A DNA stretch of 8,702 nt, taken from a virus (Duplodnaviria; Heunggongvirae; Uroviricota; Caudoviricetes). Of the stretch, positions 6,797-8,702 are shown one piece after another. The notes under the pieces were generated by a model. That model worked only from the letters and a program-made list of their open reading frames with translations. It did not search any database and had not been told where the DNA came from. The position numbers were made by a program, and so were the translations under genes. The stretch lies in the IMG/VR virus record IMGVR_UViG_2648501318_000014. One strand, given 5' to 3'. The first letter of the stretch is position 1. Each line of letters starts with the position of its first letter.

Positions 6797-7015
6797 ATGA
6801 TGATTTGCCCACTGTGTGGAAGTGCCGCCCATACTCGCAGCAGTTTTCAGGTATCTTCATTGACCAAAGAGCGTTACAACCAGTGCCAGAACATTAACTG
6901 CAGCCATACTTTTGTTACCCATGAAACTTTTGTTCGTTCGATTGCAACGCCAAAAGAGTCAAATCCGGTTCAGCCGCATCCTCATAAATTTAAACAGGTG
7001 GGTTTGCCGATTTAA
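6797..7015 (+). CDS. ogr: Ogr/Delta-type C4 zinc-finger late transcription activator, 72 aa
   Basis: MMICPLCGSAAHTRSS...KERYNQCQNINCSHTF matches the CxxC...CxxxxC Ogr zinc finger; SD GGGGAG about 10 nt upstream of the ATG at 6797; 72 aa as in P2 Ogr. The ORF-track start at 6764 adds a non-homologous extension and is less likely. Confidence 0.85.
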   Translation: MMICPLCGSAAHTRSSFQVSSLTKERYNQCQNINCSHTFVTHETFVRSIATPKESNPVQPHPHKFKQVGLPI

Positions 7016-7078
7016 ATGGCGACATAACTACATGATTTAAAACTATACTTTTCTATAAGTTGAGGTTAAATTAACAAT

Positions 7079-7256
7079 GCCTGACGTTAGCGGGGATTTA
7101 TCCCCACTCCGTAGATATGTAGTTTGTCGCTTTGCGACTGCGGACCGATTACCTGATTGCCATGTAATCGGACGCCGACTTGTTAAGCTTTCTGGGCTAA
7201 CTGGTTGTTATTTTTTATTTAGTTAGGGCCATGCGCTTGCGCTAAGAGACGTCAGG
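7079..7256 (+). ncRNA. Candidate structured noncoding RNA upstream of the RT operon (retron msr/msd-like), bounded by an imperfect inverted repeat
   Basis: Left arm gcctgacgttagcg (7079-7092) pairs with right arm cgctaa-gaga-cgtcagg (7240-7256): 13 bp with a 4-nt bulge. TTAGCG followed by a G-run sits just inside the left arm. Internal hairpins at 7092-7105, 7126-7138 and 7145-7171. No ORF. An AT-rich promoter-like stretch lies upstream and an SD follows the right arm. Confidence 0.3.
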
Positions 7257-7276
7257 TATCTATGGAGGAACAAGTT

Positions 7277-7450
7277 ATGGATACAAACGAACTTGGCTTA
7301 GTTAAGGCGCGTGTTGAACTGATCACCGCTATGCTCAAATGCGCAACCGCGTTTGTTGGCTTAGTTGGTGCGGTTTACGCCGTTCTTAACATGGCCTTCA
7401 ACTACAGCAATTTAACTCATGACAATAGAAGTTCAAAGGTGGGAAGATAA
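7277..7450 (+). CDS. Small hypothetical membrane protein (57 aa, one predicted TM helix); candidate effector or partner of the RT
   Basis: SD GGAGG at 7264-7268, 8 nt before the ATG at 7277; product MDTNELGLVKARVELITAMLKCATAFVGLVGAVYAVLNMAFNYSNLTHDNRSSKVGR has a ~25-residue hydrophobic core; its 3' end overlaps the RT start by 32 nt. Confidence 0.4.
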   Translation: MDTNELGLVKARVELITAMLKCATAFVGLVGAVYAVLNMAFNYSNLTHDNRSSKVGR

Positions 7451-8192
7451 ATTTGAGATTAAGCCCGGGGTTTGGGTTTATGTCCCAAGCGTTGAGGCAC
7501 GTAAAGTCGGAGGGAAGATACTTCAGGCTGTCAGAAACAAGTGGATTCCGCCACTCTATTTTTACCATCTAAGAACTGGTGGGCATCTTAAAGCTGCCAG
7601 ATTACACTTAAAAAGTGATTTTTTTGCCGTTGTTGATATTAAACAATTTTTTCAGTCAACGAGCCGTAGTCGTATCACCCGTGATCTAAAGAGCTACTTC
7701 ACCTATTCTCAAGCGCGGGAAATCTCAACATTTTCAACTGTAAGAAACTTGTCCCATAGTCCACATAAGCATGTCCTCCCTTTTGGTTTTGTTCAATCTC
7801 CAATACTTGCAACCCTCTGCTTAGATAAAAGTTATTTTGGTAGCTTACTACGCCGATTGAACAAACATCATGATCTCAAGCTAAGTGTGTTTATGGATGA
7901 TGTGATCATCTCGTCAAACGATTTGGCCCAATTACAAGCGGCTTACGACGAAGCACTAGTGGCAATGCGCAAATCTGGTTATCAAGCCAACATGAGTAAA
8001 ACTCAGGCACCATCGTCAAAGATTAGCGTGTTTAATTTAACTTTGAGTAAGGGAGTTATGAAAGTCACATCTCAGAAAATGAGTGACTTCCTGATTGATT
8101 TCTATTCAAGCAATTATGAGCCGCACAGAATAGGGGTCAAAAACTACGTCGAAGCTGTTAATCCAGGGCAAGCGAAACTCTTTAAGTTGTAA
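7419..8192 (+). CDS. Compact reverse transcriptase (257 aa) with retron-type motifs
   Basis: Motif 1/2-like YVPSVEARKVGGKIL; NAxxH-like AARLH; motif A FAVVDIKQFFQS (Asp codon 7635-7637); motif B LPFGFVQSPILATL; motif C VFMDDVII (Asp-Asp codons 7896-7901); KVTS in the position of the retron VTG motif. Frame is closed by TAA at 7413-7415 just upstream, so no longer N-terminus is possible. Confidence 0.85.
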   Translation: MTIEVQRWEDKFEIKPGVWVYVPSVEARKVGGKILQAVRNKWIPPLYFYHLRTGGHLKAARLHLKSDFFAVVDIKQFFQSTSRSRITRDLKSYFTYSQAREISTFSTVRNLSHSPHKHVLPFGFVQSPILATLCLDKSYFGSLLRRLNKHHDLKLSVFMDDVIISSNDLAQLQAAYDEALVAMRKSGYQANMSKTQAPSSKISVFNLTLSKGVMKVTSQKMSDFLIDFYSSNYEPHRIGVKNYVEAVNPGQAKLFKL

Positions 8193-8261
8193 TTGCGATC
8201 GCATGTAGTAGCAACTGGGCTTGACTGAATGCCTGCCGCCATTTTGCCGCCACTACCAAAG

Positions 8262-8289
8262 AAAAAAGGGCTACGCTTTCACGTAACCC
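8262..8289 (-). terminator. Intrinsic terminator of ssrA (minus strand); may also terminate the convergent RT operon
   Basis: On the minus strand: 8-bp stem GGGUUACG/CGUAGCCC (one G-U pair), 6-nt loop, then U6 (plus-strand aaaaaa 8262-8267), starting 12 nt after the ssrA 3' end. On the plus strand the same hairpin is followed by a T-rich stretch. Confidence 0.45.
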
Positions 8290-8300
8290 ATTGATTTATT

Positions 8301-8663
8301 TGGTGGAGCTGGCGGGAGTTGAACCCGCGTCCGAAATTCCTACATCCTCGGTACTACATGCTTAGTCAGTCTTTACATTCGCTTGCCAGCTGCGGACGGA
8401 CACGCCACTAACAAACTAGCCTGATTAAGTTTTAACGCTTCAACCCCAGGCAGGGCTTCCACGCGATCTCTTTTGGGTTTGACCTCTCTTGATCCCCGTC
8501 CTAAGAGCGGAGGCTAGGGAGAGAGGGCTCTAAGCAGGTTATTAAGCTGCTAAAGCGTAGTTTTCGTCGTTTGCGACTATTTTTTGCGGCTTTTTACGAG
8601 GCCAACCGCCCCTCGGCATGCACCTTGGGTTTCGCAAATCCCGTCGAATCCAGAATCAGCCCC
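8301..8663 (-). ncRNA. ssrA: tmRNA (transfer-messenger RNA, SsrA), complete 363-nt gene
   Basis: Reverse complement begins GGGGCTGATTCTGGATTCGACGGG and ends GGTTCAACTCCCGCCAGCTCCACCA; the tag reading frame GCAAACGACGAAAACTACGCTTTAGCAGCTTAA (ANDENYALAA-stop) is at 8542-8574. Matches enterobacterial ssrA as I recall it. Confidence 0.95.
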
Positions 8664-8677
8664 AATGTGTAAAGGTA

Positions 8678-8683
8678 AGTATA
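8678..8683 (-). promoter_or_regulatory. Putative -10 hexamer (TATACT on the minus strand) of the ssrA promoter
   Basis: TATACT lies 14 nt upstream of the mature tmRNA 5' end, consistent with a short processed leader; the -35 region would be at or beyond the window edge. Confidence 0.3.
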
Positions 8684-8702
8684 CCAGATTTATGAGCGCC
8701 AT

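Follow-up and report, generated by a model that had tools for sequence, protein, structure and literature searches.

The right end of the P2-like prophage in the window (the whole 8,702 nt stretch of DNA that was analysed) carries a three-part module, which in our judgement is probably an unclassified, minimal retron-like anti-phage (abortive-infection) system held there as variable cargo. The module has a retron-like anatomy: its structured RNA, small protein (SP) and reverse transcriptase (RT) are conserved together, its RNA helices covary, its RT shows affinity to retron RTs, and no third gene is conserved with it.

The module is rare cargo between ogr and the ssrA attachment site

An earlier, sequence-only reading of the window had estimated that ~1.3 kb separate the ogr stop from the 3' end of ssrA; the measured gap is 1285 nt (ogr stop at 7015, ssrA end at 8301). 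The features of this interval are collected in Table 1. The same reading had regarded the interval as cargo at a prophage end, and comparative genomics bears this out. On the left, homology with more than 1000 other E. coli prophages stops at ~6981 (query position 218); on the right, the RT gene is followed by an att-proximal segment common to other prophages and by the att site. The unit occurs at the ogr-att junction in 21–28 of 5426 E. coli genomes, while the ogr allele occurs in 1285. A copy with 99.5% identity is present in Klebsiella prophages, the records of which end at window position 8298.

The RNA may have a promoter of its own. A TAnnnT hexamer, often of the extended TGn type, lies at a fixed −13/−14 offset from a1 in 27 of 38 loci within the interval tested (most gamma and beta loci), although a strict sigma-70 scan did not call the corresponding TAAATT of the window at 7067–7072.

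Table 1. Features of the module and its surroundings (window positions).
Feature	Position	Strand	Basis
ogr (P2 late-gene activator), context	6797..7015	+	Pfam Ogr_Delta 6.7e-22; PGAP 6797-7015
−10-like hexamer TAAATT, putative promoter, 7 nt 5' of a1	7067..7072	+	hexamer at fixed offset across loci
5' structured domain of hybrid RNA (msr-msd-like ncRNA up to sequestered Shine-Dalgarno, SD)	7077..7267	+	fold; CM R1
a1 arm ATGCCTGACGT of closing helix	7077..7087	+	inverted repeat with a2; covariation
Conserved A-G directly 3' of a1; G7090 candidate branching (priming) G	7089..7090	+	38 loci
Stem-loop SL1, AGCGGGGA / TCCCCACT	7089..7108	+	fold; helix 2, 4/6 pairs with both sides changed
anti-SD arm CTCCGTAGATA	7107..7117	+	inverted repeat I3; duplex test
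Hairpin HP2 GTCGC-TTT-GCGAC, conserved form GTCAC-NNN-GTGAC	7126..7138	+	helix 3, 98% paired
Hypervariable msd-like region, two hairpins, candidate reverse-transcription template	7139..7219	+	fold z; template role inferred
IR5 arm GTTAGGGCCATG; in other clades a GTTGGTGAC-type element	7222..7233	+	duplex with IR3
Hairpin HP3 GCG-CTTG-CGC	7233..7242	+	helix 4, 97% paired
a2 arm ACGTCAGGTAT of closing helix	7249..7259	+	inverted repeat with a1; covariation
SD arm TATCTATGGAG, overlaps SP Shine-Dalgarno GGAGGA	7257..7269	+	inverted repeat; duplex test
SP, 57 aa, hydrophobic helix and invariant Asn-Tyr, putative toxic effector	7277..7450	+	conserved ORF; PGAP
IR3 arm CATGGCCTTCAAC within SP CDS (codons M-A-F-N), pairs with IR5	7390..7402	+	duplex test
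Compact retron-like RT, 257 aa, FMDD at 7890-7901	7419..8192	+	Pfam RVT_1 2e-21; PADLOC; PDB profile search
Right junction: att-proximal segment common to other prophages	8233..8300	.	homology comparison
ssrA terminator, inside right junction	8268..8289	-	
ssrA (tmRNA), integration target, context	8301..8663	-	ARAGORN; Rfam RF00023, 295.8 bits

The RNA contains three mutually crossing, covarying helices

The noncoding region is flanked on both sides by the inverted repeat ATGCCTGACGT / ACGTCAGGTAT, as had been noticed from the sequence, and it folds better than 200 of 200 shuffles (z = −3.9). A covariance model built from betaproteobacterial loci only returned window positions 7077–7279 as its top match (CM R1, 18.7 bits, E 2.9e-4). 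Rfam, searched over 7016–7280 with both gathering and E-value thresholds, yielded no family; the sole match was a chance RsmY-like one (E 7.8). Directly after a1, A13 (window A7089) is invariant and G14 (window G7090) is at least 90% conserved (n = 38 loci); by analogy with retron biology (PMC7736814), G7090 may serve as the priming G. The msd-like region varies between loci in sequence and in length (29–96 nt) and still forms hairpins (window z = −4.0, mean z = −1.6). The most conserved sequence in the RNA is the HP3 block, CATGCGC..GCGCTAG, which in other clades carries GNRA/UUCG loops. A 49-aa ORF at 7077–7226 was rejected as a gene: it lies wholly inside covarying RNA helices and has no family match.

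Column-wise pair counting on MAFFT alignments was dropped because the helix arms shift by 1–2 columns between clades. Instead, nested helices were assessed on a covariance-model alignment, and crossing helices by an alignment-free duplex test that compares cognate with swapped partners, using within-clade permutations. On the covariance-model alignment, which is fitted to the model so that its pair counts favour the structure, six of the seven pairs of the a1/a2 helix have changed on both sides, with 96.7% of cells paired; for the nested helices overall the figure is 95.5%, versus at most 38% when partners are slid, and none of 500 shuffles matches the observed covariation. In the duplex test, cognate partners beat those swapped within clades for each of a1:a2, anti-SD:SD and IR5:IR3 (0 of 20000 permutations each), while in four control pairs the cognate partners did no better than swapped ones. 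The anti-SD:SD duplex spans the SP Shine-Dalgarno in all 34 distinct loci, and the IR5:IR3 duplex, which reaches the SP codons ahead of the invariant Asn-Tyr, terminates at the Asn codon in 27 of 33.

The three helices cross one another, and therefore cannot all be nested; they may coexist as a pseudoknot or form in alternation. The noncoding region and the small ORF are best regarded as a single 'hybrid RNA' and not as two distinct components; this hybrid RNA is likely to be a single contiguous transcript.

SP is a conserved small protein overlapping the RT gene

The sequence-only reading had described a 57-aa transmembrane ORF. Its length and position stand, and a transmembrane helix fits the SP of the window (maximum Kyte-Doolittle 1.9–2.1), but the description does not extend to the whole family: in some clades the helix is amphipathic (down to ~0.7–1.0), and some alpha-clade SPs are not clearly hydrophobic. 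The longest reading of the ORF is 7262–7450 (62 aa). A start at 7277 is more probable because of (i) the Shine-Dalgarno GGAGGA at 7264–7269, (ii) the use of the same start in relatives, and (iii) the PGAP call of 57 aa, which is labelled 'hypothetical protein'. The ORF is kept in nearly all loci, with a median of 57 aa and the Asn-Tyr (NY) motif invariant. No match to SP was obtained in Pfam, PADLOC, NCBIfam or PHROGs. By analogy with the SPs of Retron-Vpa2 and Retron-Sen3, it may be toxic.

The RT had been read as lying in an operon-like arrangement with the small ORF, and indeed the two overlap by 32 nt in the window, leaving no space for a helix-turn-helix (HTH) gene between them. An overlap between the SP ORF and the start of the RT is seen in essentially all loci that include upstream sequence; the SP clusters follow the RT clades. 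No Shine-Dalgarno precedes the window RT; likewise, 34 of 38 RT start codons lack one and lie inside the SP ORF.

The RT is closest to retron RTs

Profile-HMM classification puts retron RT profiles on top. The best PADLOC profile for the window RT is the retron profile RT_VI, at only ~63 bits, and for all 39 family members tested the top PADLOC matches are retron RT profiles. The best RT_VI value in the family, 1.9e-24, is practically tied with that of RT_I-B (4.6e-24); because of this tie and the low score, placement of the RT inside Type VI is unproven. A PDB search with the single RT sequence gave no match and a family profile was needed: its best matches are the retron RTs Ec86, Eco8, Kva2, Ec78, Ec67 and Ec83 (4e-12 to 5e-8), with group II intron RTs behind them at 3e-5. 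Profile positions 12–250 align to residues 58–295 of the Ec86 RT, nearly its full length (4e-12). On sequence grounds, the RT is thus assigned to the retron RT lineage. A single-sequence 3D model was of low confidence (pLDDT 32).

Of two retron signatures, one is replaced and the other is kept in part. Firstly, retron region Y contains a VTG triplet in RT7, the G being the most conserved residue (PMC7736814); at the position of the Ec86 VTG the present family has V-F-N, with F205 and N206 invariant (n = 39). Secondly, in region X (NAXXH), the H of Ec86 NATPH has its counterpart in the invariant H63, but the N and A are not kept (consensus GGHVAAxxxH).

Other RT classes fit less well. Among UG/Abi/DRT profiles, the best, UG17 (3.3e-15) and UG33 (5.7e-9), fall short of the retron profiles; Drt3a reaches 17.6 bits, its cut-off being 200. 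The group II intron RT/maturase model TIGR04416 reaches 23.3 bits against a cut-off of 300, Pfam finds no extra domain (endonuclease, integrase or maturase) in the 257 aa, and an Rfam search gives no intron RNA.

The family is large and uniform. Its members are ~250–265 aa long throughout, in 72 word-indexed homologues and in 158–320 clusters at 50% identity (158 at E ≤ 1e-30), and their alignment has 24 invariant columns, including the catalytic D160/D161. Hundreds of 50%-identity clusters from Proteobacteria sit on prophages and islands, and their annotation goes no further than 'RT domain-containing protein' and 'hypothetical protein'. If the module is functional, current retron definitions (VTG, type-specific profiles) therefore probably undercount retron-like defence. 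Minus-strand 'conserved ORF clusters' within the RT were rejected as antisense artefacts.

The RNA–SP–RT order recurs without a third gene

Related loci were gathered with a degenerate DNA pattern derived from the window RT motif PFGFVQSPxLA; a search of genome contigs with the window protein alone found none. The order RNA–SP–RT recurs in 83 related loci of Alpha-, Beta- and Gammaproteobacteria. This recurrence, together with the finding of the window by the beta-only covariance model, indicates that the arrangement is more than chance. The retron-like order of ncRNA, small effector and RT that had been suggested for the window is upheld by its parts: an RT nearest to retron RTs, a covarying a1/a2 anatomy and a conserved SP gene.

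Across 64 non-identical loci only RNA, SP and RT are conserved. Among 123 flanking ORFs, neither an HTH protein nor any other partner recurs; the neighbours include integrases, resolvases, type I restriction-modification genes and SocA.

Comparison with known systems

The sequence-only reading could name no matching system. [quoted passage not shown] The module shares with them (i) the gene order of ncRNA, small helical/hydrophobic SP and RT, (ii) an msr-msd-like domain and SP CDS on one structured RNA, with the SP RBS sequestered by pairing, (iii) a long-range inverted repeat joining the ncRNA to the SP coding region, and a hypervariable internal stem, and (iv) a small RT (the RT_VI profile has 279 positions) with RT_VI as its top PADLOC profile.

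There are also differences. The HTH of Type VI systems is of the Cro/C1 type (cluster 2_1), is encoded upstream of or overlapping the RT, and is essential for viability in Retron-Vpa2 and Retron-Sen3 (2025–26 preprints); here, such a gene is found in 0 of 64 loci. Type VI has been placed in RT clade 3, with ~22% of its entries lacking an HTH (Mestre 2020). The SP has the position, size class and hydrophobic helix expected of a small helical Type VI SP with a hydrophobic C-terminal core, but differs in length: Type VI SPs fall into clusters cl2075, cl2760, cl3272 and cl3897, and those of the cl2075 type have 75–79 aa, whereas the median here is 57 aa, with an NY motif of its own. The blocks CATGCGC..GCGCTAG, GTCAC-NNN-GTGAC and GTTGGT were not seen in four published Type VI ncRNAs, a comparison without statistical power. 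Type VI retrons are the named analogue of an RT family that lacks the HTH, carries VFN in place of VTG, and is not captured by type-specific profiles.

Canonical retrons (Retron-Eco1/Ec86, Sen2/St85) resemble the module in their a1/a2 closing helix with a conserved G behind it in AG(C) context, in their msr-like stem-loops and variable msd-like hairpin, and in the near full-length alignment to the Ec86 RT; in Sen2, the effector also lies between ncRNA and RT. The module differs from them in an RT ~60 aa shorter at its termini, in the loss of VTG and of the N and A of NA(xx)H, and in an effector that is a 57-aa peptide inside a structured RNA rather than an enzyme. Type IV retrons (Retron-Eco6/Ec48) likewise combine a membrane-type effector with a clade-3-like retron RT on prophages or islands, but their effector has two transmembrane helices and lies downstream of, or overlaps, the 3' end of the RT, while the present peptide is single-helix and upstream; RT_IV is not among the top profiles.

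Outside the retrons, type I toxin-antitoxin systems (TisB/IstR, Hok/Sok) also have a small hydrophobic peptide that a structured leader in its own mRNA keeps from being translated; here, by contrast, no antisense RNA gene is evident, and the leader has retron anatomy and is always linked to an RT. The Abi-P2 and UG-DRT RTs are also RT-based putative defence genes in the variable cargo of P2-like prophages, but they come from another RT lineage, have roughly double the size, are protein-primed or use other ncRNAs, and occupy other P2 hotspots.

Proposed mechanism

For the retron-like defence system that we favour, cDNA synthesis, trigger and defence phenotype can be sketched by analogy with Retron-Vpa2 and Retron-Sen3. 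A single transcript, probably starting at a1 (about 7077–7080), would run from the msr-msd-like domain through the SP CDS into the overlapping RT gene. In the resting state, the SP Shine-Dalgarno would be masked by the anti-SD segment that precedes it, and an element within the msd region would hold the 3' portion of the SP CDS in a second duplex; given both pairings, little SP should be made. Reverse transcription would be primed by the 2'-OH of the conserved G next to a1, with the msd region as template for the cDNA. Infection might raise or stabilise this cDNA, for instance by way of phage proteins that act in recombination or inhibit RecBCD, upon which the RNA would be remodelled, the Shine-Dalgarno freed and SP translated. 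SP could then harm the membrane or stop growth.

Two points sit uneasily with this scheme. Firstly, the HTH that is essential in Vpa2 and Sen3 is absent, and so the Type VI analogy may fail exactly at the control step. Secondly, RT starts that lie inside the SP ORF and lack a Shine-Dalgarno fit the model awkwardly: SP translation would be off, yet the RT is needed. The replacement of VTG, the low and tied profile scores, the crossing of the helices and the alpha-clade SPs that are not clearly hydrophobic also weigh against the favoured reading.

If functional, the module would represent retron-type immunity built from just an RNA, a ~57-aa peptide and a ~255-aa RT, with no HTH antitoxin; the HTH, essential in both Type VI retrons studied so far, would here be dispensable. 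The step from cDNA synthesis to toxin activation would then be directly testable in a simpler system, by compensatory mutations in the three helices. For retron-based DNA production and editing, so compact an RT paired with a defined cognate RNA could also be attractive in practice.

Alternative explanations

It is possible, though we would not call it probable, that the module is more than a variant of known designs: a separate, previously unrecognised retron type. It would be a two-gene 'minimal retron' whose toxin is restrained by RNA alone, with no protein antitoxin, through the three mutually crossing, covarying helices. The RT-made cDNA would be the switch, annealing to or consuming the IR5/anti-SD side and thereby exposing the toxin RBS, and RT synthesis would be translationally coupled to the toxin ORF. 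Since the VTG signature is lost, retron censuses and defence-finders would miss such a family.

We consider it rather unlikely that the module follows the inverse, canonical logic, in which low-level SP production is constitutive and an RT–msDNA–RNA complex acts as antitoxin in place of the missing HTH. Phage-induced modification or loss of msDNA would then free SP, and the SD-occluding helix would merely tune expression. In most characterised retrons the msDNA–RT complex is indeed the antitoxin, and Retron-Sen3, a Type VI system, makes ssDNA and SP constitutively and is controlled post-translationally. The SP/RT overlap and the missing Shine-Dalgarno before the RT also suggest coupled co-production, as for a toxin-antitoxin pair. 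However, the Sen3 antitoxin is the HTH, which works without RT or ncRNA, and the module has no such protein. In every clade, moreover, the SD-sequestering helix has been preserved through compensatory changes; this speaks for translational repression as a central feature and not an incidental one.

Less likely again, and in our view improbable, is that SP belongs among membrane peptides of the type I toxin-antitoxin-like or prophage 'moron' kind (with a role in, for example, superinfection exclusion, lysis modulation or prophage maintenance) and is controlled by its own 5' RNA structure, the RT being separate or accessory. The type I toxins TisB and Hok are small hydrophobic peptides with a Shine-Dalgarno buried in upstream structure, as is SP; moreover, SP has no detectable homology to known defence proteins, and the module sits at a prophage end. 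Yet in 64 loci SP never occurs without the RT, which it overlaps; these loci were collected via the RT, so that RT-less SP loci would have been missed. Some features of the RNA, moreover, are specific to retrons and have nothing to do with translation control (a1/a2 helix, invariant AG, hypervariable hairpin), and one helix ties the msd region to the SP CDS.

That the RT and RNA form a selfish or mobile retroelement inserting at prophage ends and islands, with SP as an addiction factor, is very unlikely. The unrelated contexts (P2-like prophages, integrase/resolvase islands, sites beside restriction-modification genes) and the near-identity of the E. coli and Klebsiella copies would suit such an element. 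Against it, there are no target-site duplications, the RT has none of the endonuclease, integrase or maturase domains, and it falls far below the cut-off of the group II intron RT model. In addition, the points where homology stops at either edge of the cargo resemble the outcome of recombination within prophage backbones, and the module occupies a median of one place per genome, with no multi-copy occurrence seen.

Finally, an RT ~60 residues shorter than that of Ec86 and without the VTG signature could be read as what remains of a longer retron or group II intron RT (a decayed fragment or a pseudogene), in inactive debris at the attachment site, but this is effectively refuted by the uniform length, invariant columns (catalytic DD included) and wide conservation of its family: the RT is complete, matching the ~255 aa of its large family, and RNA and SP are conserved with it across three proteobacterial classes.

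Variable cargo at the prophage end

A P2-like prophage has integrated at ssrA, and the window covers its right end, where ogr comes after ORFs for the tail sheath and tube, the tape measure, U and D. The sequence-only reading placed three features between ogr and ssrA—an inverted-repeat-bounded noncoding region, a small ORF (SP) and a reverse transcriptase (RT) ORF—and all three are confirmed, at 7077–7259, 7277–7450 and 7419–8192, within a gap of 1285 nt (see table). PGAP labels the cargo ORFs "hypothetical protein" and "reverse transcriptase domain-containing protein", and annotates no RNA in the cargo.

Features of the ogr–ssrA junction (window coordinates; strand where reported)
Feature	Position	Strand	Remarks
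ogr	6797–7015		Pfam Ogr_Delta 6.7e-22; PGAP
a1 : a2 (inverted repeat)	7077–7087 : 7249–7259		ATGCCTGACGT / ACGTCAGGTAT; bounds the structured region
Invariant A-G	7089–7090		directly follows a1 in element order
anti-SD : SD arm	7107–7117 : 7257–7267
IR5 : IR3	7222–7233 : 7390–7402		C7399 bulged
SP Shine-Dalgarno (SD)	7264–7269		GGAGGA
SP ORF	7277–7450		57 aa; likely start ATG 7277, equal start in relatives; PGAP
RT ORF	7419–8192		257 aa; overlaps SP ORF by 32 nt; FMDD at 7890–7901
ssrA intrinsic terminator	8268–8289	minus	prophage side of tmRNA 3' end, in prophage-shared segment
ssrA (tmRNA gene), complete	8301–8663	minus

Comparison of ogr-att junctions distinguishes the cargo from its surroundings. 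The ogr allele is matched in 1285 genomes of the E. coli set (query extended to ogr); of the 5426 complete E. coli genomes, 28 contain the entire 1285 nt with ≥99% identity. In a prophage remnant elsewhere that carries the identical ogr allele, ogr and the host gene are just ~235 nt apart. Homology to the ogr of >1000 other E. coli prophages is lost at ~6981 and regained only in the final 68 nt (8233–8300), the region with the ssrA terminator, so the cargo spans ~6982–8232. Since the ogr stop codon lies ~35 nt beyond the point of loss, the final ~11 ogr codons belong to the variable segment, with a recombination junction within ogr (6981–7015). By sequence comparison, the module behaves as variable cargo at the prophage end; no description of cargo at the ogr-att junction was found in the literature searched.

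The entire module (window 7016–8298) is also present, at 99.5% identity, in 13 Klebsiella pneumoniae prophage records (OK490395 etc.), which implies that P2-like prophages of E. coli and Klebsiella have recently exchanged it. These records stop at window position 8298. A copy on a human gut metagenome contig (L083, 2373–3655) shares 99.7% identity with the window module, but two single-base indels break its SP reading frame and the N-terminus of its RT. This copy is either inactivated or the product of an assembly error.

Because the ssrA terminator sits on the prophage side, in a segment common to prophages, the phage appears to supply it after integration, and probably supplies the ssrA 3' end too. 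Sub-threshold Rfam "tmRNA_permuted" matches (8123–8361 and 8542–8702, minus strand) coincide in part with the att region and the standard tmRNA, and are a by-product of the genuine tmRNA match.

An RNA and two genes

Related loci were retrieved from genome, viral and metagenome collections with a degenerate DNA pattern derived from the PFGFVQSPxLA motif of the window RT. Of the 85 loci obtained, 82 encode relatives (31–100% identity), giving 83 with the window, distributed over Alpha-, Beta- and Gammaproteobacteria. At essentially all loci with upstream sequence, the RT start is overlapped or abutted by an ORF of 46–74 aa (median 57). Its product contains a helix of hydrophobic or amphipathic character, after which comes an Asn-Tyr that is invariant apart from an Asn-Trp at one locus. 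The literature searched has no account of this SP-RT family.

All ORFs within ±3 kb of 64 non-identical loci were clustered. Family-wide conservation is confined to the RT and SP clusters, with no third gene; in the 11 P2-like loci from enterobacteria, and nowhere else, ogr, D and U recur as well. The other loci contributed 123 flanking ORFs; Pfam families that recur among these are integrases, resolvases, type I restriction subunits and SocA/Panacea, with no recurrent HTH partner. Given the conservation of RT and SP only, together with the lack of a recurrent HTH gene, the system consists of one RNA plus two genes. Its contexts are mobile or defence-island ones. In one viral/metagenome locus (L047, 7790–10777, minus strand; RT identity 49%), a type I restriction enzyme R subunit lies directly upstream of the module, a position that fits a defence-island setting beyond the P2-like prophages.

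The RT start codon lacks a Shine-Dalgarno-like motif in 34 of 38 loci (window 7404–7421 and equivalents), and these starts sit inside the SP ORF, a few nucleotides past the Asn-Tyr codons. The arrangement points to coupling between leaky SP translation and RT synthesis, and any model of the mechanism must accommodate it.

A full-length, retron-like reverse transcriptase

A word-indexed search returned 72 RT homologues, and an exhaustive search 158 clusters (50% identity) at E≤1e-30 and 320 at E≤1e-10. Almost all homologues in both searches are 250–265 aa long, and a 39-member alignment contains 24 invariant columns, catalytic D160/D161 among them. The explanation that the RT is a decayed fragment of a longer gene is effectively refuted by this uniform length; its sequence instead marks it as full-length and as belonging to a distinct family related to retron RTs.

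The proposal of a retron-like RT system proved essentially right. The best PADLOC profile for the window RT is retron RT_VI (6.6e-18, 63 bits); family-wide, RT_VI (1.9e-24) and RT_I-B (4.6e-24), both types within Mestre's RT clade 3, are practically tied, followed by many further retron profiles. NCBIfam retron, group II intron and Drt3a models all score far below cut-off. Against solved structures, the family profile matches retron RTs best (Ec86, Eco8, Kva2, Ec78, Ec67 and Ec83; for Ec86, 4.2e-12, profile 12–250 against residues 58–295 of 320), with group II intron RTs behind (3e-5). H63 is invariant, as are F205 and N206; the family has V-F-N in place of VTG. On these sequence features the RT is retron-like with one hallmark, VTG, missing, a loss that may be the reason that censuses and defence-finders omit the family.

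Three crossing helices in the module RNA

The proposed inverted-repeat boundary holds: folding of the region bounded by a1 and a2 beats all 200 shuffles (z = −3.9). Read by eye and from alignments, the elements upstream of the RT occur in fixed order: (i) a −10-like TAnnnT hexamer, at −13/−14 from a1 in 27 of 38 loci and often extended (TGn); (ii) a1; (iii) the invariant A-G; (iv) stem-loop SL1; (v) the anti-SD segment; (vi) hairpin HP2 (GTCAC-NNN-GTGAC); (vii) a hypervariable stretch of 29–96 nt with one or two hairpins (mean z = −1.6; window z = −4.0); (viii) IR5, of GTTGGT type; (ix) hairpin HP3, in the most conserved block (CATGCGC..GCGCTAG); (x) a2; (xi) the SD and SP coding sequence, whose IR3 codons, just before Asn-Tyr, pair with IR5; and (xii) the RT start, a few nucleotides past IR3/Asn-Tyr. 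A 49-aa ORF (7077–7226) that begins at an ATG in a1 and crosses the structured RNA, with a partly similar ORF in related locus L004, is most likely not a gene: it has no family matches and lies within covarying helices.

A covariance model (a1:a2, SL1, HP2 and HP3) built from 13 betaproteobacterial loci gave 30 full-length matches at E≤0.01, some of them in gamma-clade loci from outside the seed; it matches the window at 7077–7279 (18.7 bits, E 2.9e-4 over the window). Alpha-clade matches are marginal (E 0.015–0.5), at exactly the predicted coordinates. In the resulting alignment—fitted to the model, and hence biased to the structure in both pairing and change counts—95.5% of cells are paired, versus ≤38% with partners slid; 13 pairs show double-sided changes, versus 5.8±1.2 in shuffles (0/500), including 6 of the 7 a1:a2 pairs.

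Since the model cannot keep two crossing helices in register, an alignment-free duplex test was used for these. When the TAG-to-HP2 segment is paired with the 22 nt that precede the SP AUG, the best duplex spans the SD in 34 of 34 distinct loci, and the IR5:IR3 duplex terminates on the Asn codon in 27 of 33, with arm sequences strongly divergent from clade to clade. Each locus's own arms were then compared with arms exchanged inside the same clade (20000 permutations). Own arms pair more stably for a1:a2 (−15.9 versus −13.1 kcal/mol), anti-SD:SD (−16.8 versus −14.1) and IR5:IR3 (−14.3 versus −12.9), and in each case exchanged arms were as good in 0 of 20000; none of four control window pairs was significant (1108 to 14113 of 20000). 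Because the three helices mutually cross, they form either pseudoknots or alternative states.

Proposed mechanism and relation to Type VI retrons

Overall, the module is best described, on this analysis, as a minimal, unclassified retron-like system with a Type VI-like working and a putative function. A single transcript would begin at a1; in its resting fold, the SD would be occluded and the 3' SP coding sequence bound to the msd region. The RT would prime on G7090 and copy from 7248 leftwards, via HP3, IR5 and the variable hairpins. Upon infection, cDNA would build up and remove or compete with IR5, possibly extending to the anti-SD beside HP2 and thereby freeing the SD; SP would then be translated, and the cell killed or arrested. 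The most plausible rival follows canonical retron logic, with msDNA-RT as the antitoxin; next comes a type I toxin-like moron to which the RT is accessory, and third a selfish retroelement.

Type VI retrons are arranged as ncRNA-SP-HTH-RT, according to two recent preprints; their HTH protein represses reverse transcription and is required for viability (recent preprints), and Retron-Sen3 produces ssDNA and SP constitutively, with the HTH as antitoxin (recent preprint). The anatomy of our module closely matches this logic. However, it lacks two membership features, namely a VTG signature and an HTH partner; its RT_VI scores are only moderate, its SP is shorter with an NY motif of its own, and its RNA sequence blocks are its own when set beside four published Type VI ncRNAs, a comparison lacking statistical power. 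Compared via profile scores and published descriptions, the module may be an HTH-less Type VI subgroup, conceivable because an HTH is likewise missing from ~22% of the 158 Type VI entries in Mestre et al.

Retron-Vpa2 has conserved direct repeats between msd and riboregulator, proposed to matter. Direct repeats in the window (7219–7228, 7295–7307, 7358–7366) comprise TTAGTTAGGG in the IR5 region and TTAGTTAAGG within the SP coding sequence, where an exact 9-nt GGCTTAGTT is present twice; apparently these repeats are confined to the gamma clade. The msd-like variable region carries 9-nt tandem repeats of CTGGGCTTA in close relatives, with a copy number that varies by locus (two copies in L004, 7330–7360; three in L057 and L033), and window 7193–7206 (CTGGGCTAACTGG) holds about one and a half copies of this repeat type.
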